Source: a virus
Taxonomy: Duplodnaviria > Caudoviricetes
IMG/VR virus record: IMGVR_UViG_3300014204_000122
Coordinates: 72,570 to 136,569 of that record
Length of the DNA stretch: 64,000 nt
Direction: 5' to 3' (one strand)
Made by a program: the position numbers and the translations under genes. Below the pieces are notes generated by a model. It was given only the letters and a program-made list of their open reading frames with translations, was not told the DNA's origin and searched no databases. How positions within the stretch are numbered: position 1 is the stretch's first letter; every line of letters begins with the position of its first letter. Of this stretch, positions 6,198-61,702 are shown in pieces.

Positions 6198-6611
6198 CTA
6201 ATATTTTGAATTATTTTTTAACACTATACCATTTTTATAAACTTCATACTCATAAAAACGAGGTAATCCATATTTTAGAGCTTCTGCTAAATCTGTCCAT
6301 TCTTCTTCAGAAACCATATCATCTGGATAAGAAAAATTACCTTTTAAATGAGCAGGTATAGGTCTTAAATTAACTAAAACTAATTCACCTTCACCACCTT
6401 TAACATCTATTGCTAATTCTTCTGTGCTCCAATCTGATTTAGTATCGATAATTTCTTCAACTCTATCACGAATTTCTTTTTGTGTATAAATTTTAGGTGT
6501 TGGAGGATCAGGAAACATATCTTCTTTCAAAATTATTTTTTTTCCTGAAATTCTTTGTAATTTTTCAGTAAGCAATTGTATCTCTAATTGTTTTTCCTTT
6601 TCTGATTTCAT
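6198..6611 (-). CDS. Tagged hypothetical protein (MKSEKEKQLE leader)
   Basis: N-terminal 30-aa tag, unique C-terminus. Confidence 0.85.
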   Translation of the reverse strand: MKSEKEKQLEIQLLTEKLQRISGKKIILKEDMFPDPPTPKIYTQKEIRDRVEEIIDTKSDWSTEELAIDVKGGEGELVLVNLRPIPAHLKGNFSYPDDMVSEEEWTDLAEALKYGLPRFYEYEVYKNGIVLKNNSKY

Positions 6612-6612
6612 T

Positions 6613-6999
6613 CTATTTTTCTTCTATATCTTCAATTTCTACATCACTATTTTCAAAATCTATAGGTTCTACACTTATTTGTGGTTGAGTTTCTTCTCCC
6701 TCTAATGCTTTATCAACACTGATAATTTCACAAGAAACTATGTTAGTGAATACTTTTAATCTTTTATCAATTGCATTTTTAAGTTCTTCTTCTGAAGGTT
6801 CAAGATTATTTGTAATTATAATTTTACCTTCAATAAGAGTAGGTTCAAACCCTTCAAATAAAACAGATACTTTAAATAAATAAGTAATATTGTTCCAATA
6901 ACTATTCATTTCTGTAAAAACTACTTTCTTGCCAGATATTCTTTGAATTTTTTCTGTAAGTAATTGTATCTCTAATTGTTTTTCTTTTTCTGTTTTCAT
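6613..6999 (-). CDS. Tagged hypothetical protein
   Basis: N-terminal tag MKTEKEKQLE...VVFTE. Confidence 0.85.
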   Translation of the reverse strand: MKTEKEKQLEIQLLTEKIQRISGKKVVFTEMNSYWNNITYLFKVSVLFEGFEPTLIEGKIIITNNLEPSEEELKNAIDKRLKVFTNIVSCEIISVDKALEGEETQPQISVEPIDFENSDVEIEDIEEK

Positions 7000-7011
7000 T
7001 ATTGTTTATAG

Positions 7012-7269
7012 TTATACAGTTATTTTATTCCAAAAATCATTTAATTTTTTATCTGCACCCACTGCTAATTGAATTATGTCTTTAGATATAGGTCCTCCTA
7101 TGATTTTAGCTGATTCTATAATGGCTTTTAATTTTTCTGCTACTATTAAAATATCTTTTATATTATTAGTGGCTTCGTTTTCTTTTAAAACTACTTTCTT
7201 GCCAGATATTCTTTGGATCTTTTCAGTAAGTAATTGAATTTCTAATTGTTTTTCTTTTTCTGTTTTCAT
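7012..7269 (-). CDS. Tagged hypothetical protein
   Basis: N-terminal tag. Confidence 0.85.
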   Translation of the reverse strand: MKTEKEKQLEIQLLTEKIQRISGKKVVLKENEATNNIKDILIVAEKLKAIIESAKIIGGPISKDIIQLAVGADKKLNDFWNKITV

Positions 7270-7275
7270 TATTAA

Positions 7276-7692
7276 TTAAATACTGATTGTTTTTACTTCT
7301 TGAATATTTAGTTTTCCTGGAACTACTATAAAAGTAACATTTTCACAAGTCCATTTATCATAATCATCGAATGATTCATGTTTGCACTCTTCAATAAGCT
7401 CTAAAGCATCTTCTGATTCTTTTTTATCTATAAGAGTTAAAAAATTAAGTAAGGCAATTTTTCTATTGATTCCTTTTACATAACTTATTTCTGAAACGTC
7501 TGCATTTCCTGAATTAGATTGTGAATAAACAGTAAATATTTTTTCTTCTTCTTGAGGTTCTCCTGGTTCCATAAGTTCTTCGATAATATCTTTGTCTTCA
7601 CTTTCTGTAAAAACCACTTTCTTGCCAGATATTCTTTGAATTTTTTCTGTAAGTAATTGTATCTCTAATTGTTTTTCTTTTTCTGATTTCAT
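7276..7692 (-). CDS. Tagged hypothetical protein
   Basis: N-terminal tag. Confidence 0.85.
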   Translation of the reverse strand: MKSEKEKQLEIQLLTEKIQRISGKKVVFTESEDKDIIEELMEPGEPQEEEKIFTVYSQSNSGNADVSEISYVKGINRKIALLNFLTLIDKKESEDALELIEECKHESFDDYDKWTCENVTFIVVPGKLNIQEVKTISI

Positions 7693-7727
7693 TTTATTTA
7701 TATTTTAATTATTTACTTTAAATATAA

Positions 7728-8351
7728 TTAATTTGGTTTTCCTACTAAAATTTTATAATGTTTTTCACCTGCAATGTCTCTTAAATACCAGCCTTCTTTT
7801 ATATTAGATCCTTTAGGATTCTCTCCAACCCATGTTACTTTCTTTCCTAATACTTGTTCTACTTCTTGTTGATTGTTTATAATAGGTACATTATATCTTT
7901 CTAGAACTTTCATTATTCTATTATCAACTTCACAATAAAAACCTTGATTCTTTACTTTATTTGCAGCTCTTTCAAAATAAGATATAATAGAAGCTCTTGC
8001 TCCATCGTGTCCTACTCCTACTAATTTAATACCGTGTTTAGTATTTTTTCCAAAATATAATACATCTATATCAGGATCTTGATCTATATCTACTACTTCT
8101 ACATAAGAAAAATCATCATTTGATAAAATATCATTTGTTGACTTTATATTACTATGACCTCCAATTTGAGAATATGCTATATTAATAAGTTCAAGAAATT
8201 CATCTACTAGTTCTGGGTGAGATTTTATATTGATTTTCTCCCACTCATGTTTTTTTAATCCTAATTTTGATGATTCTTTTTCTATAAGAATGACTTTGCT
8301 TTTAGAAATTTTTTCTAATTTTTCAATTAATAATTGTAAAATAGGTTTCAT
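7728..8351 (-). CDS. Hypothetical protein with degenerate tag
   Basis: Starts MKPILQLLIEKLEKISKSKVILIE. Confidence 0.8.
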   Translation of the reverse strand: MKPILQLLIEKLEKISKSKVILIEKESSKLGLKKHEWEKINIKSHPELVDEFLELINIAYSQIGGHSNIKSTNDILSNDDFSYVEVVDIDQDPDIDVLYFGKNTKHGIKLVGVGHDGARASIISYFERAANKVKNQGFYCEVDNRIMKVLERYNVPIINNQQEVEQVLGKKVTWVGENPKGSNIKEGWYLRDIAGEKHYKILVGKPN

Positions 8352-8416
8352 TTATAGCATTTTATTATAAATATAGGAAAGTAAAATATAAAAATTAAAT
8401 TTTATAATATTTTTTG

Positions 8417-8499
8417 TACTCTAGGTCAGACTCGAACTGACACGCTTGAGGGCGACGACGCTTAAAATCGTTGTGTACTACCAATTTCACCACTAGAGC
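8417..8499 (-). tRNA. tRNA-Leu(TAA)
   Basis: ACGAT-TTTAAGC-GTCGT; class II body. Confidence 0.88.
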
Positions 8500-8504
8500 A
8501 TTTG

Positions 8505-8586
8505 TGATCTAAGAGAGATTTGAACTCTCACTATTTACATAATTAGCTTCTTAAACTAACGTGTCTACCAATTCCACCATTAGACC
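8505..8586 (-). tRNA. tRNA-Leu(AAG)
   Basis: TTAGT-TTAAGAA-GCTAA; Leu-type D arm, A73. Confidence 0.8.
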
Positions 8587-8594
8587 ATATTTTG

Positions 8595-8684: not shown

Positions 8685-8696
8685 ATTTTATTTTTG

Positions 8697-9678: not shown

Positions 9679-10323
9679 TTATTTCATTACATATAGTTGG
9701 TATTTTCCTTTAGGAAATTCTTTAATTTCTTCAGGTGTATTAGCTGTTGCTAAAACCTTAGTTAATGTTCCAACATAGTAAGGATTATAAATTTTTGCTT
9801 TTCTATTATAAAGAGATGGAAGTTTAGTTGTACCATTTCCATCATCAAATAAATATAAATCTCTATTATCTTTTAAATATTCTTCTGTTTTTCCTGAACC
9901 TGATAAAATAATTGTTTTATCATTTCCCACAAGTTTAAGTAAAAAATATGCTGTCTTATTTTGCACAAACTCATTATTTAATGGATTTTGCGTATCAATT
10001 TTACTATCTGAATTTAAACAAGCTATTTTTATTCCTTTCTTTTCTTCTTCTAATATAATACTTTTATTAGATAATGTTGAAAATGCACTTTCATTTAGCA
10101 CTTCAAAAACCAATATACCGTTACCACCAAATTTTGAATTATTTCCTACTAATTGTCCCTCTTCATCAAATCCTAAATGAGACCAACCATCTTCTTCTAA
10201 TTCTTTTTTAAATTCAGGATCTAATTCAACCTCTTCTTTTAAAACTACCTTCTTACCAGATATTCTTTGAATTTTTTCAGTAAGCAATTGTATTTCTAGT
10301 TGTTTTTCTTTTTCTGATTTCAT
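9679..10323 (-). CDS. Tagged hypothetical protein
   Basis: N-terminal tag; internal IILEE. Confidence 0.85.
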   Translation of the reverse strand: MKSEKEKQLEIQLLTEKIQRISGKKVVLKEEVELDPEFKKELEEDGWSHLGFDEEGQLVGNNSKFGGNGILVFEVLNESAFSTLSNKSIILEEEKKGIKIACLNSDSKIDTQNPLNNEFVQNKTAYFLLKLVGNDKTIILSGSGKTEEYLKDNRDLYLFDDGNGTTKLPSLYNRKAKIYNPYYVGTLTKVLATANTPEEIKEFPKGKYQLYVMK

Positions 10324-10327: not shown

Positions 10328-10897
10328 TTATATTTTATTTATTATTAAGTTTTCAGGAATATCAACTATATATTCTCCTGATGTTAAAGGGTCCAAAAAT
10401 AAAAGTCCTCTTGGAGTACTTAAAACTAATTCTTTTCTTTTAGTTTGCGATGGATTTGAAATAAACCCTAAAACTTTTCCTACTTCAAAACTATTATAAC
10501 CATTATATCCTATATATTGGTTTTGTTTAAGTAACCACAAACCTCCTGTTTTATCTAAATTTTTAATATGATCTTTAATACTATTATTAGATGTAAATTC
10601 TTCCTCAAAACTATCACCCATATCAGGATGTACAATTAAAGGATTTTTAACTAAAGGTAATTTAACTTTATAATCAGGATATATTTTTTTAAAATATTCT
10701 AATACTTCAATTTTAATAGGAGTATTTTTTAAATTAATTATTTTATTTTCTTCATTAATATTATCAATAAAATTTTTTATTCGTTCTTCTATTTTAACAG
10801 GTTTGGCATGTTTAGAGTAGTAAACATAATCATCTTCCAAAATAACCTTTTTATTAACAAGGTTTTCTAATTTTTCTATTAATATATTTATGTTCAT
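10328..10897 (-). CDS. Hypothetical protein with degenerate tag and YSKxxKPxKxxER module
   Basis: MNINILIEKLENLVNKKVILEDDYVYYSKHAKPVKIEERI. Confidence 0.8.
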   Translation of the reverse strand: MNINILIEKLENLVNKKVILEDDYVYYSKHAKPVKIEERIKNFIDNINEENKIINLKNTPIKIEVLEYFKKIYPDYKVKLPLVKNPLIVHPDMGDSFEEEFTSNNSIKDHIKNLDKTGGLWLLKQNQYIGYNGYNSFEVGKVLGFISNPSQTKRKELVLSTPRGLLFLDPLTSGEYIVDIPENLIINKI

Positions 10898-13820: not shown

Positions 13821-14513
13821 TTATATTTTTTTAAATTCTATCATAGCTTTATAAAGGTTTTCTAAATCAGAATCAGAAAAAGATAAAGTATCAATTTCAT
13901 GATTATGTAATATTTCAACCATTTTGTCAATTTTTTCATCACTTATACTTTCCCAAATAGAGGAATCATAATCTGATGTAGTTCCATCTTCAAACTTTAA
14001 TTTAATTGTGTTATCGTCAACTTTTTGTATAAATTTTCCTGTTTGACCCTGTTTATTAGCTGGATCAGTAGTTAAATTTCTAGGAACTGTTAGAGATTCT
14101 CCTATTTCGTGATAATCAAAAATGTTTTCTTTTAATACTGTTAAACCACTATTTAGTGATTCTTCAAATACCTCTCCCTCAGTAGCATCCTTTAAAAATT
14201 TAATAATTTTTTCTTCAGGTGATAATTTATCAGGTGTTTCACCCATAGCAATATCGTATTTGTCAATTAATTCAGCTTTTTCTTCATCGCTGTTATTTTC
14301 ATTTTCACAAAATTTAATTACTTTATTAAAAAAAATTCTATCATCTTGAAAATTTCCTTTAATTTCATAATTTTTTAAATCCTGAAAAGTGGAATTATTA
14401 TTTGATGATTCTTTTAATATGTCGATTGATAAAACCACTTTCTTACCAGATATTCTTTGGATTTTTTCTGTAAGTAATTGTATTTCTAATTGTTTTTCTT
14501 TTTCTGATTTCAT
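13821..14513 (-). CDS. Tagged hypothetical protein
   Basis: N-terminal tag; internal VLKE. Confidence 0.85.
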   Translation of the reverse strand: MKSEKEKQLEIQLLTEKIQRISGKKVVLSIDILKESSNNNSTFQDLKNYEIKGNFQDDRIFFNKVIKFCENENNSDEEKAELIDKYDIAMGETPDKLSPEEKIIKFLKDATEGEVFEESLNSGLTVLKENIFDYHEIGESLTVPRNLTTDPANKQGQTGKFIQKVDDNTIKLKFEDGTTSDYDSSIWESISDEKIDKMVEILHNHEIDTLSFSDSDLENLYKAMIEFKKI

Positions 14514-15452: not shown

Positions 15453-16313
15453 ATGAAATCAGAATTAGAAAAATAATTAGAAATACAATTACTTACTGAA
15501 AAAATACAAAGAATCTCTGGAAAGAAAATTGTTTTAGAAGAAAGTGAAAAGGATATTTTTGATTTATATCAAACATATCCAATAAAGGGAAATAGAAAAC
15601 TAGGTGTAGTAGAATCGATAAATGGAAAAGATATTGAAAAAAAACAAACAGATAAAATTTGTAGTGATTTAGAAAACTTAGGATATTATACTCATGTTGT
15701 TAAAAATAGATTTGGTTATTATGATATTATTTTTTATAAAGATTTTAACAGTGAAATTGATAAAGCCATTAAGCTTTATAAAAAATACACGAGCTTTTCT
15801 ATGATAGATAAAAAAGACACAATGGATGGATTAACTAAAGATGAACATATTTTTTTAGGAAGAATGTTTGGTATAAAAGAATCAGAAATAAATAAATTTG
15901 TATTTGATATTTTTAATGACGATAACGATGATGAAGAATGGAAAAAAGCTGTTGAAAATTATATAGATGAAAATGATGCTGTTTTAATAAAACCTTTTTT
16001 GGAAGATAAAAGAAAACTTTCGGCTAAATTTGAAATGCAAGGAACAACTATTATTGTAACTTTTAACAAAAAATTTATATTTCCGGAAAATTATAAAGCT
16101 GATTTTTTCTTTATGAGATTAATGGTAACACAATTTAATAAAGGTTTAAAAAAATCAAATAAATTAAAAATAATATCTCCTAATATTATAAGTTGTGAAA
16201 ATATTCCAGGAGAAATAGATTTGGATTTATTTAACGAACTTGTAAAAGAAATAGAGGAAGACCTTATTTGGGCTGCAAAACGATATTTAAAAAATACTTC
16301 AAAAAGATCTTAG
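15453..16313 (+). pseudogene. Tagged protein with TAA at codon 8 of the tag (CAA in other copies)
   Basis: MKSELEK*LEIQLLTEKIQRISGKKIVLEE, then open and in frame with track ORF 15801-16313. Confidence 0.75.
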
Positions 16314-35359: not shown

Positions 35360-36178
35360 ATGGAAAAAGAATTACAATTACTTATTGAAAAATTACAAAA
35401 ACTTTCAAACAAAAAAGCTTTTTTGGTAAAAACCAATATATTTAAAGAATCTTTAAATAGTGCAAAACAAAAATATTTAATAAATAATTTAATTGAAGAA
35501 GATATATTTAAAAAATTATTAGAATCTGATAAAACATCATCTAAAAAATATATTGAATGGATGTGCAAAATATATTTAAAAGATCAGCCTGAGTTACATG
35601 AATTAAAAAATGCAATAGAGGAATTTAATGCTCTTGTTTTAGATAAGAGAATAAAAGGAGAAGAGTCAAATATAGAAAAATATAAAAGTTTTAAAGAGTT
35701 TAGTGAATATATTGATAGAAAAAATAATGAAGAAATAGTTGTTTCTAAAACACAACAAGAGAATGATTATAAAATATTAATAAATAATTCTGAACTTTTT
35801 GTGGTAGCTCCACATAATCATGCTGCTAGTAGAAAAGTAGGTTTAAAATGGTTCGCAGTAAGACCTAACACTAAAACAGGAACAAATGATTGTCCGTGGT
35901 GTACAACATATGGTGCTGAGTCTCATTGGAAGGGTTATTGGGAAAGTGGCCTTGATTCTTTTTATTATGTTAAAGTTAAAGGAAAACTTAAAGAGAAAAT
36001 AATATCAACACCTGGATTAGGTCCAAAATGTGAATATGTTGCTTTACAAATACATATTACAGGAGGTATTAGAGTTTGGAATACGGATGATAGTCAAATT
36101 TCAAAAGGTGGAGAATATATGAGAATATTAGAAGAATATCTAGAAGAAAATAATTTAATAGAGAGTTTTTGGGAGTAA
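35360..36178 (+). CDS. Hypothetical protein with degenerate tag and WCTT domain
   Basis: MEKELQLLIEKLQKLSNKKAFL...FKE; HAASRKVG...PWCTT. Confidence 0.8.
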   Translation: MEKELQLLIEKLQKLSNKKAFLVKTNIFKESLNSAKQKYLINNLIEEDIFKKLLESDKTSSKKYIEWMCKIYLKDQPELHELKNAIEEFNALVLDKRIKGEESNIEKYKSFKEFSEYIDRKNNEEIVVSKTQQENDYKILINNSELFVVAPHNHAASRKVGLKWFAVRPNTKTGTNDCPWCTTYGAESHWKGYWESGLDSFYYVKVKGKLKEKIISTPGLGPKCEYVALQIHITGGIRVWNTDDSQISKGGEYMRILEEYLEENNLIESFWE

Positions 36179-36442: not shown

Positions 36443-36489
36443 TTTTAAAAAACAGTTATATTTAAATAAAATAATAATTATATATTTCA

Positions 36490-39636: not shown

Positions 39637-40545
39637 ATGAAACTTACAAAAATAGAATTTCAGTGTTTAACTGAACAAGAAAATAAAAATCTTAGCAAAC
39701 ATACTTTTTCTATGTTGGAAAAATATGCTAGTAAATTATCACCTAAAGATAATTTTTATACAAATAAATGTATAAAGGTTTTAAAAGAGGAAGTTAAAAA
39801 AAATATTGATATTTCAAATACAATTTTTAAGGTTTACGAATTAAAAGAAAATATATTAAACCTTTTAAAAGAAGATAGTAATGGAGAAAAAAGAGCCGTT
39901 ATTAGAGATAAAGAAAATATTAAAAACATTGTAGTAACTACAATGGGTGAAGGAAAAAGAGACCTTGAAACAATTTATGTGGATTTTAGTATTATTGTTA
40001 AGCCTTTTGGAGATTCAAAAGCAGCAGTTGGAAGAGAGATAGAAAGAATTATAGTTAATAATGATCGTTTAGGAACAAAAATCATAGCACAATTATTACC
40101 TCAAATTGATGGATTTGCAGGAACGGGAACATATCAAGGATATATAAGATCAACACCAGTAGCACCAGGAGATTCAATTAAAGCTAGAAATGATATATCT
40201 ATTGATACTACTTATGCTAAAGATCCTAAAAGTTTTAAAGAATATGTTGAAGGAATATCTCAATTGTTTGATCTTTTAGATGAAAAAGTTGTAAGTTGGT
40301 TAGATGTTGAAAATTACGATGATGAAAATGTAGCTGCAGGCTCTGATGAAACAGAAGAAGAAAAAAGAGATAAAGAATTTAAAAATTCTGAAAGAGAATT
40401 TGATAATCCTGATGATGAACAAATTGAAAAAGGTATTTTGAGTAAATTACGCAAGGAAGGTTTGAAAAGAGAAAAAAATTTAGAGATTGAATTACTTACA
40501 GAAAAAATTCAAAAGCTTTCAGGTAAAACAGTTATTTTTGAATAA
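39637..40545 (+). CDS. Putative prohead core protein with C-terminal tag copy
   Basis: Lies between portal and protease; ends REKNLEIELLTEKIQKLSGKTVIFE. Confidence 0.65.
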   Translation: MKLTKIEFQCLTEQENKNLSKHTFSMLEKYASKLSPKDNFYTNKCIKVLKEEVKKNIDISNTIFKVYELKENILNLLKEDSNGEKRAVIRDKENIKNIVVTTMGEGKRDLETIYVDFSIIVKPFGDSKAAVGREIERIIVNNDRLGTKIIAQLLPQIDGFAGTGTYQGYIRSTPVAPGDSIKARNDISIDTTYAKDPKSFKEYVEGISQLFDLLDEKVVSWLDVENYDDENVAAGSDETEEEKRDKEFKNSEREFDNPDDEQIEKGILSKLRKEGLKREKNLEIELLTEKIQKLSGKTVIFE

Positions 40546-40602: not shown

Positions 40603-40687
40603 GCTATCTTAATTAGTAAAAATAGTTAAAAAAATATTTTTTTAAGCATTAAGGTTATATTTATAAAAAACTATAGTTATATATTTA

Positions 40688-41458
40688 ATGAATTACGGTA
40701 AGAAAATAAAAATTACAAAAGAACGTGCGTTGTTAGATGAGTCTAAAATAAACGGCCGTATAATAAATTCAGCAACTAATGGCTTTTTATTAGAAGCAGA
40801 AGGTGGAATGTCATATATGGAAAAGTGCAAACTTAATCCAGATTTACCAATATTTTTAACAGGAATTATACAAACTGGTGATAAGCCTAATAGAAATGGT
40901 AGAATATATCCATGGGACTATTTAAAACGTGAGGCTATTAGATATATGGAAAATGAGGTTAAAAACGGATTGTCTTTTGGGGAGTTAGATCACCCTTCAG
41001 ACTCTGCAACTCCTTCTCTAAGTAACGCTGCACTAGCTATTGAAGATCTTTCCTTTAAAGGTAAAGATGTGATTGCAAAAATCAGAGTGTTAAATGCTTA
41101 TATGCCTGATAACGCTCCAGGTAGAAAAGTAAGAGGTTTTTTATTAAATGGTAAAAATGTAGGAATATCCTCAAGAGCTTTAGGTTCTTTAGAACAATAT
41201 TCAAATACAGAATATGACGTAGTAGCTGAAGATATGGAAATGGTATGTTGGGATTTTGTTTCTAATGCTTCTAATTATGGATCTGAAAAAATGCAATTAT
41301 CAGAAGAAAACGGATCTAAACCTCAATTACATAAAAAATCTAAATTATTATTTGAATCTGAACTTCCTAAAATTCAAACATTAACAGAAGCAGAGAAAGT
41401 TTATTTAGAAATATTAGGAATTGAAAATTTTATAAAAACTAAAAACATTTTAGGATAA
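40688..41458 (+). CDS. Prohead core protease (T4 gp21-like)
   Basis: NRNGRIYP, GELDHP, GISSRALGS, WDFVSN. Confidence 0.95.
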   Translation: MNYGKKIKITKERALLDESKINGRIINSATNGFLLEAEGGMSYMEKCKLNPDLPIFLTGIIQTGDKPNRNGRIYPWDYLKREAIRYMENEVKNGLSFGELDHPSDSATPSLSNAALAIEDLSFKGKDVIAKIRVLNAYMPDNAPGRKVRGFLLNGKNVGISSRALGSLEQYSNTEYDVVAEDMEMVCWDFVSNASNYGSEKMQLSEENGSKPQLHKKSKLLFESELPKIQTLTEAEKVYLEILGIENFIKTKNILG

Positions 41459-42137: not shown

Positions 42138-42217
42138 TCAAAATAAATTGATTAAAATATTTAATTTTTTTGAGTTAGTTATATTTAAATAAAAAATAAA
42201 CAATAAATTTTTGTAAA

Positions 42218-43690
42218 ATGGACAAAACTAAAATAAAAAAACTATTAACAGAAGATTTTTCTCTTAATTCCCCAATTGAAGTTATAGATGGTGTTGAGGA
42301 TGGAAACATTGAAAATCCAGTAACAGTTAATTTAAAACCAGGGGATATTATTACTGTTATAGATAATGAAGGCTCTAAAAAAGGAGTAGTACAAGTAGCT
42401 GAAAATTCAGGAGATTTAAATGTTGCTATTGAAGATGAAGAAGAATCTTTAGATCAAGATGATTTGGATATTATAGATATTATAGATTCGGAAGATGAAG
42501 AAGAATCTTTAGATCAAGACGATTTAAATATTATAGATTCAGAAGATGAAGATGAAGAACAGGAAGAATCTTTAGAAAGTGAGGATTTACAAAATAAAAT
42601 TGAAGAAATTAAAACTAGTATAGATAACCTACAAGAGGAAATAGAAAATATTGAATTGCAAATATCTGATAACGAAGAAATAGAAAATATAGAAGATAGT
42701 GAAATTGAACTAGATTTAGAGGATGAAGAAGAATCTTTAGATCAAGACGATTTAGATATTATAGATATTATAGATTCAGATGATGAAGAGGATAATTTAA
42801 ACGCAGCAATAGATGAAGTTGAAAGCGAGACAGAAGAAATAAATGAAAGTGATATTTCTGACGATGATGATCTTATTGATATTTCTGATATAAATAATAA
42901 TGATGAAATAGAATTAACAGAAGATATTAATATTAGTTATGATGACGATAAAGAAACTATAGAAGATATAGAAACTTTAGATCAAAATAGCTTAGATACT
43001 AATGATTTAGAAATAGAAGATTTAGAACCAGAAGATGAAGAAGTTGGTTTATCACCAGAGGAATTAGATGCAGCTGGCCTAGGAGATTTAAACCCAACGT
43101 TATCTGACACATCAGAAGAAATTACAGATACTAATATGTTAAATACAGAATTGGAAGATGAAGTTTCTGACGAAACTCTTTCTGATGTAGATGAAGGTGA
43201 AGCTATAAAAAAACAAGAAGATGTGGATGAGTTAGTGGTATCTTTACTTGATGACGAAGAATTAGAATATATTTCTGATTCACCTAATGATGAAATAGAT
43301 CTAAAATTAGAGTCAGTTTCTAAAAAAGAAAAAATGTTACAAGAATCTGTTAAAAAATTAGAACTTGAAAACTATAAACTTTTAAAGGTTAATGGAATTT
43401 TAAATTTATTACCTGATTTGTCTTTAGAAACAAAACAAACATTGGCAGAAAGTTTTGATAAATGTTCAACAACAACACAAGTTAAAAATTTATATAGTAA
43501 AGTTGTTTCAACTGTAAAGGAACATAAAAAACCAAAACTTAATACATTAATTATAGAAAGTAATAAAGGCTATAATACAATAGGTATTCCAATGAAAGAT
43601 AATTTTGATGATAATATTTTAACAGAAGATCAAAAAAGAAAAAATTATTTAATGGGAATAAACGAAAACGAAGAAGATTATTTCGGATAA
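42218..43690 (+). CDS. Prohead scaffold protein (gp22-like), highly acidic, with internal EDEEESLDQDDL repeats
   Basis: Position before MCP; acidic low-complexity region; LELENYKLLKVN...ESFDK C-terminal motif. Confidence 0.75.
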   Translation: MDKTKIKKLLTEDFSLNSPIEVIDGVEDGNIENPVTVNLKPGDIITVIDNEGSKKGVVQVAENSGDLNVAIEDEEESLDQDDLDIIDIIDSEDEEESLDQDDLNIIDSEDEDEEQEESLESEDLQNKIEEIKTSIDNLQEEIENIELQISDNEEIENIEDSEIELDLEDEEESLDQDDLDIIDIIDSDDEEDNLNAAIDEVESETEEINESDISDDDDLIDISDINNNDEIELTEDINISYDDDKETIEDIETLDQNSLDTNDLEIEDLEPEDEEVGLSPEELDAAGLGDLNPTLSDTSEEITDTNMLNTELEDEVSDETLSDVDEGEAIKKQEDVDELVVSLLDDEELEYISDSPNDEIDLKLESVSKKEKMLQESVKKLELENYKLLKVNGILNLLPDLSLETKQTLAESFDKCSTTTQVKNLYSKVVSTVKEHKKPKLNTLIIESNKGYNTIGIPMKDNFDDNILTEDQKRKNYLMGINENEEDYFG

Positions 43691-43805: not shown

Positions 43806-45482
43806 ATGAGACAATTACAAGAAAACACTGAAAAATATAATTTAGGCCGTATTCTTGACCGTTCAGAAACTACACGTATTACAGAAGTAGTTTCAGCATG
43901 GAAAAAATCGGGTTATTTATATGGTCTTAAAGGTAGAGACCTAGGTAAAATGGCTATTTTAGCTGAAAATCAAAAAAAACAAATTTTACAAGAAAATAAC
44001 ACTACTGCAGATATGGCAGTATTTGACACAATCGCAATTCCTATGATTCGTCGTCAAAATGCATTAATGGTAACTCCTAATTTAATTAGTGTTCAACCAT
44101 TATCATATCCAAACGGTATTGTTTTCTATTTAGACTATGAAGTGTCTAACGAAAAAGTATCTGTTGGTACAGCAAAAACATGGGAAGGTAAATCAGGATA
44201 TGATCGTTTTTACGATAATGCTGGTTATGATACTTCTAAAGGACGTATTATTGCACGTGGTTATCCTACATATGCTGGCCCTATTGCTCCTATTGATGCT
44301 GCTTTAGCTGCAGAATTTCAAGTTGCAGGTGTTGACTTAGGTGCCGGTGCTGATCTTAATCTTGCAATTGTAGAACTTGATGGTGCTGCAGTTGGTGGAT
44401 TTGCAATGAATAACTTAGCTTCTTTAAGAGTATTTGCTCATAATGGTATTAAAGAATTAGTAGAAGGTGTAGATTATTTTATTCAAAAAACAATACAAGA
44501 TTGGGGAACTGATTTATTATCTAAAAATCGTGTTGCAGGTGTAACAGCTTCAGGTAACGCAGGTGGACAAAATCAACCGCCAGCAAATACAGGTGGTGGA
44601 ATACAAGGTCCAGGTGCAGGTGATAATATTGTTGAAGTAAAAATTATTCCTACAGTAGCTGGTTTAGGTGCAAACGTAACAGTTCGTTTTGGATTTAACG
44701 ATTATGCTAACTTAGAATTAGAACCACAAAACAGTACAGAATTACGTATGAAAATTACTTCTGCTCCTGTTCAAACTCATATTCATAAGTTAAAAACAGC
44801 TTGGACTATTGAATTAGCTCAAGACTTAATGGCTTACCACGCAATTGATGCTGAAGCTGAATTAACTCAGTTAATGTCAGAAGAAGTAGCTCAAGAAAAA
44901 GACCGTATGATCATTAAAGAATTAGTATATGGTGCAGCTCACTTTGAAGTGTGGAATGCAGATTTTGCTACTGCTGTTGATCCTAATCCTGCTAATACAG
45001 TATTCCGTGGTACAGAAGGAACATACAATCAAACATTAGTTTATGCCGTTAACAGAATCAATGGTAAAATCCAAAAATCAACTCGTAGAGGTGGTGCTAA
45101 CTGGATTCTTATCTCTGCTGAAGGTGCAGCTAAATTAGAAAACTTAGATACTTATAAACCAATTGAAGGTGATGCAGAAGGAACAAAATTTGCTGCAGGT
45201 GTTGAAAAAATGGGTAAATTATCTAAAAAATGGGATGTGTTTGTTGATCCAATGTTACCAGCTGAAGTTTGTTTAGTAGGTCGTAAAGGTACTTCTTTCT
45301 TTGATACAGGATTCGTTTATTGTCCATATATTGAATATATACTATCTCCAGTTGTTATTGATCCAGAGACTTTCAACCCTCGTAGACAATTAGCTTCTAG
45401 ATTCGGAACAAAAATGTTAAATAATAAATTCTATGGTATTGTTCATATGAAAGGAATTGAAAAATTCGAGATATTTGACTAA
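43806..45482 (+). CDS. Major capsid protein (T4 gp23-like)
   Basis: MAILAENQ, VQPL, KLKTAWTIELAQDLMAYHAIDAEAEL, GFVYCPY, DPETFNPR. Confidence 0.97.
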   Translation: MRQLQENTEKYNLGRILDRSETTRITEVVSAWKKSGYLYGLKGRDLGKMAILAENQKKQILQENNTTADMAVFDTIAIPMIRRQNALMVTPNLISVQPLSYPNGIVFYLDYEVSNEKVSVGTAKTWEGKSGYDRFYDNAGYDTSKGRIIARGYPTYAGPIAPIDAALAAEFQVAGVDLGAGADLNLAIVELDGAAVGGFAMNNLASLRVFAHNGIKELVEGVDYFIQKTIQDWGTDLLSKNRVAGVTASGNAGGQNQPPANTGGGIQGPGAGDNIVEVKIIPTVAGLGANVTVRFGFNDYANLELEPQNSTELRMKITSAPVQTHIHKLKTAWTIELAQDLMAYHAIDAEAELTQLMSEEVAQEKDRMIIKELVYGAAHFEVWNADFATAVDPNPANTVFRGTEGTYNQTLVYAVNRINGKIQKSTRRGGANWILISAEGAAKLENLDTYKPIEGDAEGTKFAAGVEKMGKLSKKWDVFVDPMLPAEVCLVGRKGTSFFDTGFVYCPYIEYILSPVVIDPETFNPRRQLASRFGTKMLNNKFYGIVHMKGIEKFEIFD

Positions 45483-45600: not shown

Positions 45601-46944
45601 ATGAGGGAAGAAATCCAAAATATTTTAGATAAAGATAAACTATATAATTTAACGAGAAAAAATTATTTAGAAAAAAACTATAAAACAATTTATGATAATT
45701 TATATATGTTTAAAAATATATATTATTTTAATATAGAATTACCCTTTGCCCAATTAGTTTATCTTTATTCTTACGATTTAAAAGAATTACCTGTTTGCTT
45801 AAAGTGTAATAGTAATAAGCTTACTTTTGTATCTTTTTCGCAAGGATATAAAAAATATTGCTCTAAAAAATGCTCAAACAATCACCAAGAAAGAATAGAT
45901 AAGCGTAACCAAACTATTTTAAAAAAATATGGCGTTAAAAACATATCTCAATCTGAAATAATAAAAGAGAAAAAGAGAAAAAATTCTATAGAAAAACATG
46001 GAGTAGATAGTCCGTTAAAATTAAAAGAAATAAGGGATAAATGTGAAGCAACTTGTGTTCTAAAATATGGAGATTATAATGTTTCTAAAGTAAAAGAATT
46101 ATATAATAAGCAACGAATTAAATATCAAAAAACATTAAAAGATAAATATGGAGTAGATCACATTTCTAAAGTAAAGAGTGTACAAGAAAGTAAAGAAAAA
46201 ACATATTTAAAAAATTGGGGTGTTAAAAATCCCTTTTTATCCAAAATTATACAAGATAAAAAAAATAATACAATTCAAGAAAGATATGGAGTTAATAATG
46301 TTGGAAAATTATTAGCAACTATAGATAAAAGAGAAAAAACATATTTAGAAAAGTATGGGGTTAAAAACCCTATGTTGTTATACAAACCGGTTAAAACTTC
46401 TAAAATAGAAACAAAAATTTGCAAATTAATAAATGGAGAAAAATTTAGATTTCAAGGACGTGAATATGACATTAAGGTAGGAAAAGATATATTTGAGATA
46501 GATGGAGATTATTTTCATCCAAAAGAAAAGAAAAACTTAGGTATAATGCAAATGGGTGGATTGATAAATGATTATAGAAAATATAATGCTATTGTAGGTT
46601 CTGAATATAATATTTATAAAATATATACTTCTAATCTACCAAAAAATTTAGAAGGGTTAACAATTGATTTGCTTAAACAACTAAGTTATGAACCCAATTA
46701 TCAAATAAACTATGAAGATGTTTTGATATCCAGTGATTACTTAAAAAAATACGTTAAAGAAAAAGGAGAAAATAAGTTATTTAAATATGTGTTTAAACAA
46801 TTAGTTGATATTTGTATAGAAATAGGAAAATTAAATTTGACAAAAGAAGAAATAGAAGAAAGAGTAAGATATATTTTGTTGAACAAGTTAGATTTTAGTT
46901 TCAACAATATTTTAAATAATTCTTATTTTAAAATAAATAAATAA
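45601..46944 (+). CDS. Putative free-standing homing endonuclease (KYGVxN repeats + PD-(D/E)XK)
   Basis: YCSKKC Zn motif, tandem KYGVxN repeats, EYDI...FEIDGDYFH. Confidence 0.7.
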   Translation: MREEIQNILDKDKLYNLTRKNYLEKNYKTIYDNLYMFKNIYYFNIELPFAQLVYLYSYDLKELPVCLKCNSNKLTFVSFSQGYKKYCSKKCSNNHQERIDKRNQTILKKYGVKNISQSEIIKEKKRKNSIEKHGVDSPLKLKEIRDKCEATCVLKYGDYNVSKVKELYNKQRIKYQKTLKDKYGVDHISKVKSVQESKEKTYLKNWGVKNPFLSKIIQDKKNNTIQERYGVNNVGKLLATIDKREKTYLEKYGVKNPMLLYKPVKTSKIETKICKLINGEKFRFQGREYDIKVGKDIFEIDGDYFHPKEKKNLGIMQMGGLINDYRKYNAIVGSEYNIYKIYTSNLPKNLEGLTIDLLKQLSYEPNYQINYEDVLISSDYLKKYVKEKGENKLFKYVFKQLVDICIEIGKLNLTKEEIEERVRYILLNKLDFSFNNILNNSYFKINK

Positions 46945-46948
46945 TAAA

Positions 46949-47377
46949 ATGAAAGAAGAAATAAAAGAAATTATAGATACATATAGTATTTTTAAATTAA
47001 TTAAGCCACAATTTTTAGAGAAAGAATATAATAGTATTTTCTTAAAAATAAGCGTATTTAAAGAAAGATATTATAAAAATGATATATTACCATATTCTCA
47101 GATAGTTTATTTGTATAATCACAATATAATAAGTATACCGAAGTGTTATTGTGGTAATCAATGTACTTTTAAATCTTTTTCAGAGGGATATAGAGGCTAT
47201 TGTTCTAATAAATGCTCAGCCAATTCAAAAAATAAACAAGAAAAAATAGAAAAAACTTGCACAGAGAGGTATGGTGTAAAAAATGTAGCACAAAAACAAG
47301 AAGTAAAAGATAAAAAAAGAGAAACTTTTTTAGCAAATGAAAAAAATATGATAAAAAATAAAAAAACTTTTATATAG
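46949..47377 (+). CDS. Truncated paralog of the preceding endonuclease (no nuclease domain)
   Basis: Aligns by eye to its N-terminus (LPYSQIVYLY...YCSNKC...ERYGVKN). Confidence 0.65.
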   Translation: MKEEIKEIIDTYSIFKLIKPQFLEKEYNSIFLKISVFKERYYKNDILPYSQIVYLYNHNIISIPKCYCGNQCTFKSFSEGYRGYCSNKCSANSKNKQEKIEKTCTERYGVKNVAQKQEVKDKKRETFLANEKNMIKNKKTFI

Positions 47378-48527: not shown

Positions 48528-49994
48528 ATGAAATCAGAAAAAGAAAAACAATTGGAAATACAACTACTTACTGAAAAAATTCAAAATATATCTGGAAAAA
48601 AGGTTATTTTCAAAGAAGAGTTTAATATAGAAGAGGAAGACGATTATTATTTAATAACCTCTTTAGAAGATGAAATAGAAACTGAAGCTTTTATAGATAA
48701 TTCAAAATATATTCAAAATAAATTTCCAAATGAAAAAGTTTTAAAAATTGATTGTGTTTATAATAATGATTTTTTTAAAAAATTTATAGGGTTTTTAAAA
48801 AAGAATAATATTAAATATAATATTAGAAAGGCAAGATTAGATAATTTTTGTAGAATCAATATAAATGTAAAAGATTTAAAATCAACAAACATTTTAAAAG
48901 AAAACGAAGAGAAAACATATAAAATATCAAAAACATATAACGATAAAACTAAAGTTATTGAAGATACTTTAGAAGGATTAATCAAATATTTTAGTTATAC
49001 TTTAGAATCAGGAAAAAGTCATAATAGTTCAATAGATAAAAGACCTAAAACAATTAATAGTCTTATAAGTAATTTAAGAAAAGCTTTTGATGAATTAGAA
49101 GGAGGTTTTTCTAGAACAAGTATTAGGTTAATTAAAGAAAATGTTGAAGTATTAAAAGAAACTATGTCTGCTATCCCTCCTGTTAAAAGTAAAACATCTG
49201 ATTTAGAGAATTTAAGAGCTGCAATTATAGCAGAATATGATGCTATTAATTTATATGATCAAATGGCTAATAATACAAAAAATAGTAAAATTAAAGAAGT
49301 TTTGTTAGATATAGCTAAAGAAGAAAAAACTCATGTAGGTGAATTAGAAGCACTTTTAAAAGACTTTGACAAACAACATGCAGAAGAAGTCGTTTCAGGA
49401 GAAAAAGAGGTTAAAAAAGCTTTAAAAGAAGAAAAAACAACAGTTTTAAAAGAAGCTATTAATCCTAGCAGTTGGAATATGACTAATGTGGCAAATAAAG
49501 TAGAAAGTTATGCAAATGAAAAAAATATACCTTTTGCTAAATTTAAAATTGAAAGAAAACCTTATGGGTATGGAGCTACTAGAACTACAGCTAAATTAAA
49601 AATAGGTTCAAATATAATTCTTATGAAAGTAGATAAAGTACCTGGAATGGGCAATAACGCAAATGACCTTGAGGTATATATGATAGATCCACAAGATGAA
49701 TCTAAAGGTATAAAAATCAGCAACTGGTGTTATTTATCAGATATTCCAAAATTTTTAGATAAATGGTTTGAATCATCTCAAGTTAGTTCTGATATTAAAA
49801 CAATGTCTAAAGAAGAGGTTGAAAAATTAAAATCAGATTTAAAAAAGGCAAGAATTGAAAATAATGAAGAAATAAGTGATGATCAAGCTTTTGATATAGC
49901 AGAAAATATTATAAATGAAAATCCGGGTTTAAAGGAATATTTAACTAGTATAGGAATTAAAGATATACAAGGCTATATAGCTAATTGGATATAA
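48528..49994 (+). CDS. Tagged multidomain protein containing a ferritin-like domain
   Basis: N-terminal tag; LRAAIIAEYDAINLYDQ...DIAKEEKTHVGEL; domains separated by (L/I)KE. Confidence 0.8.
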   Translation: MKSEKEKQLEIQLLTEKIQNISGKKVIFKEEFNIEEEDDYYLITSLEDEIETEAFIDNSKYIQNKFPNEKVLKIDCVYNNDFFKKFIGFLKKNNIKYNIRKARLDNFCRININVKDLKSTNILKENEEKTYKISKTYNDKTKVIEDTLEGLIKYFSYTLESGKSHNSSIDKRPKTINSLISNLRKAFDELEGGFSRTSIRLIKENVEVLKETMSAIPPVKSKTSDLENLRAAIIAEYDAINLYDQMANNTKNSKIKEVLLDIAKEEKTHVGELEALLKDFDKQHAEEVVSGEKEVKKALKEEKTTVLKEAINPSSWNMTNVANKVESYANEKNIPFAKFKIERKPYGYGATRTTAKLKIGSNIILMKVDKVPGMGNNANDLEVYMIDPQDESKGIKISNWCYLSDIPKFLDKWFESSQVSSDIKTMSKEEVEKLKSDLKKARIENNEEISDDQAFDIAENIINENPGLKEYLTSIGIKDIQGYIANWI

Positions 49995-54813: not shown

Positions 54814-55128
54814 TTAATATTTTATATTTAAAAATTTTGCCACAGTATCAAATTGTTTATAACTCATCCAATCAATCCACAAAATCCAATTATATTTCTC
54901 GCTAGGTTTTGTTAAAGGTATAATTTTTTTGCCATTACTTAAAAAATCAATATTGTTTTCTAATTCTTCTTTAGTAATACCATTCATGAAAATTCGATCT
55001 TCTTGAAAATCAAAATCTATTTTTTGCTGATTTATATTTTCCCTCAAAATTACTTTCTTACCAGAAATTCTTTCTATTTTTTCGGTAAGTAATTGTATCT
55101 CTAATTGTTTTTCTTTTTCTGTTTTCAT
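54814..55128 (-). CDS. Tagged hypothetical protein
   Basis: N-terminal tag. Confidence 0.85.
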   Translation of the reverse strand: MKTEKEKQLEIQLLTEKIERISGKKVILRENINQQKIDFDFQEDRIFMNGITKEELENNIDFLSNGKKIIPLTKPSEKYNWILWIDWMSYKQFDTVAKFLNIKY

Positions 55129-55143: not shown

Positions 55144-55983
55144 TTATTTAACATTAGAAGATCCGACACGTATAAATTTTCCAACATTATTAGCATCTTT
55201 TGTTTTTAGAACTATAGTTGTTTTTTCATCACTTTCTAGTTTTGTAATTGTATATTTAGAGGGATATCCGTTATTAGATTTTTCTATAACTTGATATTTT
55301 TCTTTAGTATCTTTATTTGTAAAAAGATGAACAGCTTTATAACTCCAAGATCCCACATTACGTGTTGTATGACTATCTTCTTGTGTTAAAACAAATCCAG
55401 CTTTTTTAAATTCATATTTTAAATTCTCCCACTTGTCTTCACCAGCAATTCCAGTAAACATTTCTTCTTCTTTTAAAATTACTTTTTGATTAGAAATTTT
55501 TTGAAGTTTTTCTATAAGCAGTTTTAATTTTTTAATTGTATTTTCATCAAATACATATCCTAATTCTAGTTCTTTATAACCATATGCCTGTTGTGATATA
55601 TCTTGAAGAGTAGAGAGTAAATTTTTAAGAGAAAAATCCTCTATATCATCTAATTTATAAGACCAATTTTTATCTTTACGCAATAAAGAAAATGTATTTT
55701 TAGTAACATTATATTCTATAATAAATTTTTCAGAACCAAATATTAATTTAATTATATCGTTTTGTTTATTAATAGATGTAATTTTTAACTTACTTGATAA
55801 TCCCGGAACTTCATACTCATCGTTATTTTTTAAATCATTTAACCAAGATTCTAATTCATCTTGAGCTTCTAATAAACGAGGACTACTTAAAACTTTTGTA
55901 GGCAACCATTCTTTTAATAAAATTTTATTAGACAATAATTGTAATTTTTCTTTAAGTAATTTTAATTCTTGTTTTTTGTTCAT
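55144..55983 (-). CDS. Hypothetical protein with two degenerate tag copies
   Basis: MNKKQELKLLKEKLQLLSNKILLKE...KLLIEKLQKISNQKVILKEE; ATG 55983 preferred. Confidence 0.8.
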   Translation of the reverse strand: MNKKQELKLLKEKLQLLSNKILLKEWLPTKVLSSPRLLEAQDELESWLNDLKNNDEYEVPGLSSKLKITSINKQNDIIKLIFGSEKFIIEYNVTKNTFSLLRKDKNWSYKLDDIEDFSLKNLLSTLQDISQQAYGYKELELGYVFDENTIKKLKLLIEKLQKISNQKVILKEEEMFTGIAGEDKWENLKYEFKKAGFVLTQEDSHTTRNVGSWSYKAVHLFTNKDTKEKYQVIEKSNNGYPSKYTITKLESDEKTTIVLKTKDANNVGKFIRVGSSNVK

Positions 55984-55999
55984 TCTTAAAATAGATATT

Positions 56000-56242
56000 T
56001 TACTTATAAGGATTAATTTCTTTTTCATCTACAAATAAATGTCTTTCACCTTGATATTTAAACAATAGTTTTTTAATATCATTAACAATAGAGTTTTTTA
56101 TAAAACCCTCACCATCTATATGTATATTAACTATTCCGAAAAATTCTTCACGTTCTTTTAAAACTACTTTCTTTCCAGATATTTTTTGAATTTTCTCTGT
56201 AAGCAATTGTATTTCTAATTGTTTTTCTTTTTCTGATTTCAT
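56000..56242 (-). CDS. Tagged hypothetical protein
   Basis: N-terminal tag. Confidence 0.8.
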   Translation of the reverse strand: MKSEKEKQLEIQLLTEKIQKISGKKVVLKEREEFFGIVNIHIDGEGFIKNSIVNDIKKLLFKYQGERHLFVDEKEINPYK

Positions 56243-59858: not shown

Positions 59859-59875
59859 AATTATTAATAAGCTAT

Positions 59876-59910
59876 AAAAAAGTGTTTTAAGAAATTAAAA
59901 CACTTTTTTT
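59876..59910 (+). terminator. Intrinsic terminator after sheath
   Basis: AAAAGTGTTTTAA/TTAAAACAC + T-run. Confidence 0.75.
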
Positions 59911-59959
59911 GTTTTAAAAACGTAGCAACAAAAAAATTAAGATATTTAAAGAAAGTAGT

Positions 59960-60493
59960 ATGATAAAAAATATAAAAGAAATATTCTTAGAAAAAGCTAA
60001 TTTAAAACACAATAATAAATATAGTTATGGAGATTTTGATAATTTAAAAACAAGAGAATCTAAAATAGATATTTATTGTCCTATTCACAAAGAATGGTTT
60101 AAACAAAAAGTGAAACTACATTTAAAGGGTTGTGGTTGTCCTAAGTGTGGAATAGATCGAATAAAAAAAAAGCTTTCTTTATCAGATCAAGTATTCTTAG
60201 AAAAAGCTAATTTAAAACACAATAATAAATATAGTTATAGAAATTTAGATGGTTTAAACAATAATAAAGTTAAAATAGATATTTATTGTCCTATTCACAA
60301 AGAATGGTTTAAACAAAAAGTAAGTGATCACTTAAGAGGTTGTGGTGAAAAACAATTTAAACTTACCCAACAAAACGACCTTATCAAAACTAACTATTGT
60401 AAAGAAAATAATATTTTATTAATTAGAATAAGTTATTTAGATATTAAAAAAATTGATAATATTTTAAATAAAGTCTTTAACCTAATAAATTAA
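59960..60493 (+). pseudogene. Internally deleted homing-endonuclease-like gene
   Basis: Two FLEKANLKHNNKYSY...CPIH...HLxGCG repeats joined directly to the DLIKTNYCKENNILLIRISY C-terminus; catalytic D...ExDG region missing. Confidence 0.6.
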
Positions 60494-60564
60494 TTAAAAA
60501 AACTAGAAAAACAATAAAAAAACTAATATTTAAAAATAAACTACTTTAATTAAAAATATATAAG

Positions 60565-60804
60565 ATGAATACAGAAAAAAAACTCTTAAAAGAGGCAGAT
60601 AGTAGAGTGTTAGATGCTGTTAAAGTATTAGCTAATGCAAAATCTAATTTAGATGAAGCACAAACTATTTTAATCATGAATTTAAGTTATCATTTTCAAC
60701 AAATATATGGTGAAGATTTAACTCAAATTAATGGAGAAATAACACAAGCAATTAATAGTCTTAATGAATTGGCTAAGAAAATCAGAACTCAATTAAAACA
60801 ATAA
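60565..60804 (+). CDS. Small helical protein with short KKLLKE N-terminus
   Basis: TAATG-coupled to tagged genes. Confidence 0.75.
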   Translation: MNTEKKLLKEADSRVLDAVKVLANAKSNLDEAQTILIMNLSYHFQQIYGEDLTQINGEITQAINSLNELAKKIRTQLKQ

Positions 60805-61085
60805 TGAAATCAGAAAAAGAAAAACAATTAGAAATACAATTGCTTACCGAAAAAATTCAAAGAATTTCGGGAAAAAGGGTAATTTTTGAAGAAGGTTTTA
60901 TATCTCCTAAAGAAATTAATATTTCTAAAACAGAAAAACTTCTAAAAGAATTAACTGTAATAACTTATGATTTATTTGATACGGTAGGAGATAAACCTTT
61001 TGTTGGTTATTTATTTAAAGCTTTAGAAGAAGGGCAAAAAGTAGTTGAGGATTTAAAAGAAATTCAAAAAAGTATAGGACAATAA
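60804..61085 (+). CDS. Tagged hypothetical protein
   Basis: N-terminal tag. Confidence 0.85.
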   Translation: MKSEKEKQLEIQLLTEKIQRISGKRVIFEEGFISPKEINISKTEKLLKELTVITYDLFDTVGDKPFVGYLFKALEEGQKVVEDLKEIQKSIGQ

Positions 61086-61702
61086 TGAAATCAGAAAAAG
61101 AAAAACAATTAGAAATACAATTGCTTACAGAGAAAATTCAAAGAATCTCTGGAAAGAAAGTAGTTTTGAAAGAAGGTACTTGGGCTATTCCTGCATCAGA
61201 AGAAGATTTTGAAAAAGCAGAAGAATTATTAAGAGAATTAATATCTTTAAGAAAAAGATTTTATAGTGTATTAGGTGATGATATTTTATTTGATGGTTTT
61301 GGTGCTGCTGAAAGTAGAGCTAAAGAATTAATAGAAATAGCAAAAGGAAATGTTAACAAAACATCAGAAAAAAGTAATACTTACCAAGAAATAAAACAAC
61401 AAGTAAAAGAAATGAAAAGTTGCATTTCTGATTTAAATGATTTTTACAATAGAAAGATAACAGGGGATATTCTTTATAAAAGAATAGTAGAAAAAACGCC
61501 AAGTTTACAAATAGAAAATAAAGAAGCTTATTTAGATTTTCTTGAACAAATAAATAAACCAAAAAGATTTGGAGAATGGACTTTACCTAAAGAATCAAGT
61601 GGCTCTTTTTATACAGCTTTTTTAGATAGTGATTTTTTTTATGAAAACGAAGATTTAACTGAAAAAGAAGTTGAAGAATTAATAGAATATTTAAAAAATT
61701 AA
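61085..61702 (+). CDS. Tagged hypothetical protein
   Basis: N-terminal tag followed by GTWAIP...GDDILFD domain. Confidence 0.85.
   Translation: MKSEKEKQLEIQLLTEKIQRISGKKVVLKEGTWAIPASEEDFEKAEELLRELISLRKRFYSVLGDDILFDGFGAAESRAKELIEIAKGNVNKTSEKSNTYQEIKQQVKEMKSCISDLNDFYNRKITGDILYKRIVEKTPSLQIENKEAYLDFLEQINKPKRFGEWTLPKESSGSFYTAFLDSDFFYENEDLTEKEVEELIEYLKN

Follow-up and report, generated by a model that had tools for sequence, protein, structure and literature searches.

Why should one short peptide open gene after gene of a single bacteriophage, when the proteins that follow it are unrelated to one another? The question is raised by a 64,000-nucleotide stretch of DNA (hereafter the window), the final 64 kb of the 136,569-bp IMG/VR record IMGVR_UViG_3300014204_000122 (Caudoviricetes). 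Within it a near-identical leader of 30 amino acids begins 11 open reading frames (ORFs), and the leader copies are highly non-random. What is observed here is a shared leader, together with the selection acting on it, where it occurs, how it is tied to head genes and what one of its cargoes is. By analogy with bacteriophage T4, we consider it probable, though by no means assured, that the leader is a longer form of the T4 capsid-targeting sequence, one that contains a helix and ends in a protease site.

A leader maintained as a peptide

An earlier note on this DNA had placed N-terminal copies of the leader at 6611, 6999, 7269, 7692, 10323, 14513, 55128 and 56242 on the minus strand and at 48528, 60804 and 61085 on the plus strand, with a stop-interrupted twelfth at 15453 (plus). 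All were recovered with a hidden Markov model (HMM), and the copy at window:61085-61174:+ was taken as the reference:

61085 to 61174, plus strand: leader, reference copy, starting ORF 61085-61702 (GTW cargo, named for the motif with which it opens and conserved across dialects; also covered by an AlphaFold2 model)
60804 to 60893, plus strand: leader copy, ORF 60804-61085
48528 to 48617, plus strand: leader copy, ORF 48528-49994 (488 aa)
6522 to 6611, minus strand: leader copy, ORF 6198-6611, the first in a tandem array of four tagged genes
6910 to 6999, minus strand: leader copy, ORF 6613-6999
7180 to 7269, minus strand: leader copy, ORF 7012-7269
7603 to 7692, minus strand: leader copy, ORF 7276-7692
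10234 to 10323, minus strand: leader copy, ORF 9679-10323
14424 to 14513, minus strand: leader copy, ORF 13821-14513, with a short insertion ahead of its ILKE motif
55039 to 55128, minus strand: leader copy, ORF 54814-55128
56153 to 56242, minus strand: leader copy, ORF 56000-56242
15453 to 15542, plus strand: leader copy broken by a stop codon

The broken copy reads TAA at 15474-15476 where the other copies read CAA, and after this stop the frame stays open for another 278 codons, to 16313. The gene may recently have become a pseudogene, the stop may be an assembly variant, or the cargo may now be made without its leader.

On average the copies are 87% identical in nucleotides across the 90-nt leader; identity drops to 42% over the 40 nt before it and to 35% over the 30 nt after it, with similarity ending sharply at (L/F)-x-E. 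Twenty residues are invariant in the 11 window copies, and several of these use varying codons. That the copies differ mainly at synonymous sites, as had been claimed, is borne out because the pooled Nei-Gojobori ratio of nonsynonymous to synonymous substitution (dN/dS) is 0.10, and 0.04 over codons 2-25, at a synonymous divergence (dS) of 0.63. Judged by these substitutions, the leader copies are old and selection acts on the peptide.

The way in which the leader ends bears on its possible processing. The T4 prohead protease gp21 cuts after L/I-x-E, and the capsid-targeting sequences of T4 are N-terminal propeptides of 10-20 residues (PMC9026906, PMC5694885). Across the leader family as a whole, Glu occupies position 29-31 in 122 of 124 members, and the residue two before it (P3) is Phe in 51, Leu in 41, Tyr in 4 and Ile in 1. 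The (L/I)xE-like site proposed earlier holds as a Glu-terminated hydrophobic motif and goes beyond the strict T4 L/I-x-E, P3 being Phe as often as Leu; the type of motif suggests a T4-type site, yet Phe at P3 falls outside the T4 rule. The best-conserved positions of the family are E6, K7, L9, L13, L14, E16, (S/T)22, G23, K24, K25 and V26. In the AlphaFold2 model of the GTW protein, built from an 8-sequence alignment (mean predicted local distance difference test score, pLDDT, 68), residues 4-22 form a helix at pLDDT 75-79 and residues 23-38 a coil in which confidence is lowest at 30-32; the cargo fold comes after the coil. The hydrophobic residues of the helix cover a broad arc, as in helical bundles. 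An amphipathic helix as a distinguishing trait of the leader was rejected (hydrophobic moment 0.30, against 0.24 +/- 0.12 for shuffles).

In the GTW cargo family Glu30, Gly31 and Trp33 are invariant, giving a junction of Glu-Gly-x-Trp. One orthologue has a leader of only 8 residues, ending in LNE before GTW, and another carries the leader together with a 30-residue spacer that ends in ILKE directly before GTW. Such a pattern would be expected of a conserved processing site.

Diverged copies, dialects and copy number

Further copies were scored with an HMM built from the whole leader family (iE, independent E-value):

40465 to 40542, plus strand: C-terminal leader copy of the 302-aa protein, ORF 39637-40545 (iE 4e-11)
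10835 to 10894, minus strand: diverged second-dialect N-terminal copy, ORF 10328-10897 (iE 1.5e-4)
8280 to 8336, minus strand: diverged N-terminal copy, ORF 7728-8351 (iE 1.2e-3)
35369 to 35416, plus strand: diverged N-terminal copy, ORF 35360-36178 (iE 9.5e-4)
55468 to 55527, minus strand: internal copy, ORF 55144-56028 (iE 8e-5)
3902 to 3955, minus strand: C-terminal copy, ORF 3893-4381, immediately upstream of ORF 1927-3888 (iE 5e-4)
3493 to 3552, minus strand: internal copy, ORF 1927-3888 (iE 0.028)

The C-terminal copy in ORF 39637-40545, described before from the letters alone, is confirmed by this model. The other six belong to a second dialect, although the canonical leader is present on orthologues of ORF 35360-36178 from other phages (P0008, P0051). 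Degenerate copies had also been described at these six places, namely the N-termini at 8351, 10897 and 35360, two internal sites and the C-terminus of the 3893 ORF, and these stand; one more, at 55983, is weak when taken alone (iE 0.56).

A count across the genome and its relatives, which the earlier note had proposed as a check, gave 23 copies in the record at iE < 0.05, 19 of them in the window. They are cleanly separated from noise because the next match comes only at iE 0.5. The proteins of the window are listed in the protein index on a contig of 192,988 bp, as against 136,569 bp for the virus record. One tagged protein, P0010, is listed on a contig of 192,988 bp and occurs also in the IMG/VR contig G001; it was not found in the 136.5-kb record, and therefore the full genome probably holds more than 23 leader copies.

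The leader family in metagenomes

Outside this phage, a profile search of 1.84 billion representative proteins returned 123 with the leader at E <= 0.001. The leader begins at residue 1 in 118 of the 125 proteins examined, seven representative proteins have double leaders, and 114 regions that follow the leader group into about 80 unrelated clusters. A portable leader is supported by these roughly 80 unrelated cargo families and by the N-terminal, C-terminal and internal positions in which it is found. In each of the six genomes compared, leader identity within the genome exceeds that between genomes, and orthologous cargoes wear the dialect of their own genome.

Pfam domains occur on only a handful of the cargoes in the family (EncFtn or rubrerythrin, leucine-rich repeat (LRR), NUDIX and DUF3008), and 10 of the 11 canonical cargoes of the window had no match in Pfam or PHROGs. 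The model of the GTW cargo matched nothing in the PDB at E <= 0.001 with Foldseek, and the cargo of ORF 9679-10323 returned from the ESM Atlas only scores below 0.8, with template-modelling scores below 0.35. No match to the leader was obtained by tblastn against 50,697 phage records. Neither of two profiles found a leader in Flavobacterium phage immuto, where an empty answer proves little. A literature search found no published account of the leader family or of a tagged phage EncFtn.

Directly after the internal leader copy of ORF 1927-3888 (minus strand) lies a weak 2H-phosphoesterase or RNA-ligase-like domain (PF13563, 4.4e-5, below the curated cut-off; phrog_755, 2.6e-5; no PDB sequence match). 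Some phage enzymes with this fold degrade cyclic-nucleotide immune signals. The putative domain is a lead only.

Leader genes at the head locus

The phage encodes a gp21-family protease, a T4-type portal and a Gp23-type capsid protein. Its head module is T4-like in order (portal, 302-aa protein, protease, 225-aa protein, acidic 490-aa protein, major capsid protein):

37816 to 39543, plus strand: portal, T4-type (gp20 family, PF07230; Pfam and PHROGs)
ORF 39637-40545, plus strand: 302-aa protein between the portal and protease genes
40688 to 41458, plus strand: prohead protease, Peptidase_S77 / T4 gp21 family (PF03420, 76.8 bits; Pfam and PHROGs)
42218 to 43690, plus strand: very acidic 490-aa protein in the scaffold position, a role inferred from position only, with LLTE at residues 9-12
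43806 to 45482, plus strand: major capsid protein, Gp23 family (PF07068; Pfam and PHROGs), with ILQE at residues 60-63

As the earlier note had it, the capsid protein contains ILQE and the acidic 42218 product contains LLTE. Glu63 of the capsid protein, within (I/L)(L/V)xE, is invariant in this phage and four relatives including immuto, the nearest cultured relative by capsid protein (37% identity across 58% of the protein). It is the predicted maturation site of the capsid protein, marking the end of the N-terminal domain and lying at the place where T4 gp23 is cut, and the terminal Glu motif of the leader resembles this site of the clade.

In three lineages, leader-bearing genes occur in the interval between portal and protease, in a different arrangement each time. 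This phage has the C-terminal copy on its 39637 product, G007 and L022 have a protein that bears a tandem pair of leaders, and L028 has a small tagged gene directly after the portal. The double-leader head-module protein (P0126, L022) is conserved. A word-based search for homologues of the 39637 protein gave only itself and a scan of viral contigs none; an orthologue in L023, a close relative with a portal 81% identical, came by way of the portal locus, at which no double-leader gene was seen. That orthologue, 53% identical, has no leader copy, which weakens the earlier suggestion that cargo co-assembles through a core protein carrying the C-terminal copy. A leader-like C-terminal helix in the protease was rejected as its likeness is not significant (score -0.8), and a short leader on the 41460 product was dropped as it is not conserved in L023.

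An encapsulated-ferritin cargo

One canonical cargo can be assigned. By homology, that of ORF 48528-49994 is an encapsulated-ferritin (EncFtn) protein:

49191 to 49421, plus strand: EncFtn domain, residues 222-298 of the tagged 488-aa protein (PDB 5n5e, E 8e-17)

The match at this value is to EncFtn of Pyrococcus furiosus (5n5e); 2e0z, in which encapsulin and EncFtn of P. furiosus are fused, matches at 1.2e-15, and EncC and EncB of Myxococcus match as well. Both iron-ligand motifs, E...Y and ExxH, are conserved in the alignment. Short tagged EncFtn proteins occur in two further dialects (P0044, P0047), and the peptide common to all three is the N-terminal phage leader, not an encapsulin-type targeting peptide. 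EncFtn is a typical cargo of the HK97-fold shells formed by encapsulins (PMC5012862, PMC11202242).

The EncFtn domain of the 488-aa protein had no tblastn match in 50,697 deposited phage genomes, and a second EncFtn query had a sole match there, MW679026.1:51820-52026 of Eggerthella phage LE2-3 (E 2e-5), annotated as a ferritin-like superfamily protein. In IMG/VR the domain is encoded on seven viral contigs. On one of these (L066:1459-3207; IMGVR_UViG_3300037063_000087), which is unrelated to this phage, a portal (phrog_146, E 1e-43) bears a C-terminal EncFtn domain (5n5e, E 2e-21) and its gene is flanked by terminase and head-morphogenesis genes. Because portal C-termini are known from solved portals to face the capsid interior, the EncFtn domain of this second phage almost certainly sits inside its head. 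These findings lend support, independent of the T4 analogy, to the view that phage capsids are loaded with EncFtn and that the address used here would be the leader.

On two AT-rich contigs the EncFtn gene has short leaders of other kinds, one of them common to neighbouring genes. Small-gene arrays on the AT-rich fragments L061 and L065 (G011 and G013; 5-19% complete by CheckV) open with the short leader MKY(L/I/V)KxFE, which is also carried by the EncFtn gene of L061; exact DNA-pattern matches number five in G011, two in G013, one in G010 and none in controls. This looks like a second leader system, of T4 length, in other phages.

A proposed mechanism and its alternatives

In the capsid-targeting model, the leader would comprise a predicted helix (residues 4-22), followed by the invariant segment (S/T)-G-K-K-V and then by a hydrophobic tail, exposed and with Glu as its last residue. 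The helix and GKKV segment would dock a protein on the assembling prohead core or the inner shell. Once the shell is closed, the gp21-family protease would cut after the leader Glu and free the cargo in the head, after which the leader fragment would leave or stay. Such a module would be functional at the N-terminus, at the C-terminus or between domains, and would have spread onto many unrelated genes through duplication and recombination, with selection holding the peptide matched to one common partner per genome. Leader binding, cleavage, presence in virions and ejection are parts of the model that we infer; the injection of cargo and the effector roles proposed in the earlier note find no support here.

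Several observations weigh against this interpretation. The leader has no known sequence similarity to the T4 capsid-targeting sequences and is three times longer, its P3 is Phe in half of the family and thus beyond the L/I-x-E rule of T4, and its helix is no more amphipathic than shuffles. Whereas the internal proteins of T4 are basic, 10 of the 11 cargoes here have an acidic pI (4.1-6.1). The C-terminal copy near the portal is not conserved, the L023 orthologue having a different C-terminus. EncFtn-like proteins without a targeting peptide exist outside shells too (PMC11202242), so that an EncFtn cargo is suggestive and not proof.

Four other explanations of the leader were considered. The leader could be a self-associating block of the prohead core or inner body, with co-polymerisation between leaders, in place of binding to a separate receptor, seeded by head-module proteins that have one or two copies, and with the cargo still lying in the head. 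Double leaders, in the conserved head-module protein and in seven representative proteins, would fit such an arrangement, as would the C-terminal copy on the portal-adjacent protein of this phage and the broad hydrophobic arc of the helix. Given that the L023 orthologue lacks the copy and that no double-leader gene was seen at its locus, we hold self-association to be unlikely, if still credible. A shade less likely is that the leader docks to some other hub outside the capsid (an adaptor on the virion surface or tail, a phage chaperone, a host factor), in which case the Glu motif would be incidental. LRR repeats on some cargoes could serve as adhesins, and acidic cargo is unusual for DNA-embedded head proteins. 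Such a hub sits poorly with the many cargoes of only 50-110 aa, with a Glu at 29-31 that is so nearly universal and matches the capsid-protein maturation motif, and with a GTW junction that is invariant even in the short-leader orthologue; the EncFtn cargo and the portal-EncFtn fusion point inside a shell.

A propeptide that keeps effectors inactive, or marks them for a late protease in the cytoplasm, without any packaging, would account for the protease-type motif at the junction and for the diverse, uncharacterised cargo. However, gp21 of T4 is a component of the prohead core, and its substrates are proteins of a prohead already assembled (PMC9026906), and 30 residues held at a dN/dS of 0.04 far exceed the needs of a cleavage site, which makes this account improbable. 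The repeat might instead act at the level of DNA or mRNA, for instance in recombination (as a cassette), in translational control or as a promoter-proximal signal, with the peptide a by-product. The 87% nucleotide identity, the use of CTT for Leu14 in 11 of 11 copies and the probable spread of copies by recombination could be read in this way. We nevertheless judge it very improbable: with dS at 0.63 and dN/dS at 0.10, invariant residues are encoded by varying codons, copies are found also at C-termini and inside ORFs, and in other genomes the peptide is retained although its DNA and its dialect differ.

Returning to the leader as a capsid-targeting sequence, a wider claim is held more tentatively, as possible rather than probable. 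The leader may be a plug-and-play capsid address for N-terminal, C-terminal and internal sites, through which a T4-like head is loaded with active EncFtn and dozens of other proteins. Such a head would double as an encapsulin-like enzyme compartment, and would be a living link between phage targeting and maturation and encapsulin loading.

Other features of the phage and the window

The phage of the record is uncultured; only one sequencing run, from a landfill metagenome, contains most of the stretch that was sampled. The DNA has a GC content of 25% and encodes 30 tRNAs. A tail-sheath match in the window is weak and below cut-off. Directly 3' of the capsid gene, at 45601-47377 of the window (plus strand), lie two homing-endonuclease-like ORFs (phrog_3339), and an ORF running off the window start, 3-1157 (minus strand), has a weak match to an intein-splicing domain (PF14890, 3.1e-4, below cut-off).

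The T4 late promoter TATAAATA was rejected because its placement upstream of tagged or head genes is not specific. A different motif, TATATTTA(A/T)A, precedes the protease gene, the 42218 and 36490 genes and several leader-bearing operons by 18-38 nt (for example at 7717-7726, 36457-36466, 40656-40665 and 42180-42189); late specificity could not be demonstrated for it. Obvious Shine-Dalgarno sequences were not seen at start codons, which fits a Bacteroidota-type host.

Implications

If the leader loads heads, the T4 principle of "target, then clip" has been scaled to some two dozen proteins per genome and to at least 80 cargo families in metagenomes, and a defined 30-residue peptide becomes a candidate packaging tag for phage protein delivery. 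Many unannotatable ORFans would also be marked as likely virion-borne proteins that enter the cell with the DNA, and therefore as prime candidates for roles in early takeover or anti-defence. The tagged EncFtn and the portal-EncFtn fusion of L066 bear on the origin of the shells and cargo common to encapsulins and HK97-fold viruses. The principle of the T4 capsid-targeting sequence is already known; new here is a family of long, 30-aa leaders on about 80 cargo families, EncFtn among them.

Comparison with known systems

In T4, capsid-targeting sequences were reportedly described by Mullaney and Black in 1996 on the internal proteins IPI, IPII and IPIII and on Alt. Those of all four proteins have been reviewed (PMC9026906, PMC3012670). 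Like them, the leader is shared by otherwise unrelated, fast-evolving genes, partly in tandem arrays, for which it would be an N-terminal propeptide, and it ends in hydrophobic-x-Glu, a putative site of the kind cut by a gp21-family protease. This phage also has the portal, protease and capsid protein of T4 type, and the additional C-terminal propeptide of T4 Alt provides a precedent for C-terminal leader copies. Unlike the T4 sequences, the leader has 30 residues rather than 10-20, with a predicted helix and an invariant GKKV core. P3 is often Phe and the cargo is mostly acidic and includes EncFtn. There are about 23 copies per genome, internal and tandem ones among them, compared with about four in T4, and the leader family is conserved over many uncultured phages in genome-specific dialects.

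In phiKZ, 201phi2-1 and SPN3US, many head-internal proteins are cut after Glu by a diverged gp21-like protease, and the paralogues gp53 and gp54, inner-body or ejection proteins of the phiKZ type, have an identical 15-aa N-terminus (PMC5694885, PMC7411985). Their propeptides are mostly longer than 100 aa and heterogeneous, with A/S/G-x-E sites (PMC5694885), and do not form one portable tag on dozens of unrelated proteins, whereas the leader is a uniform 30 aa with Phe or Leu at P3. A parallel in size is DarB of phage P1, an anti-restriction protein delivered with the DNA, about 30 N-terminal residues of which suffice to bring a heterologous protein into a myophage head (PMC9024508). Unlike the leader, the DarB signal corresponds to no consensus shared among the Dar proteins.

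As with encapsulin cargo-loading peptides, a short portable peptide would send diverse cargo into an HK97-fold shell, and an EncFtn homologue of the kind loaded by encapsulins is tagged here (PDB 5n5e, 2e0z, 7s8t, 7s5c). Encapsulin targeting peptides are usually C-terminal, uncleaved and of another sequence than the leader (PMC5012862, PMC11202242, PMC8346489). While the encapsulin shell is non-viral and has no portal, terminase or tail, the shell in the present case is that of a tailed phage, which packages DNA and has a portal as well as an S77 maturation protease.

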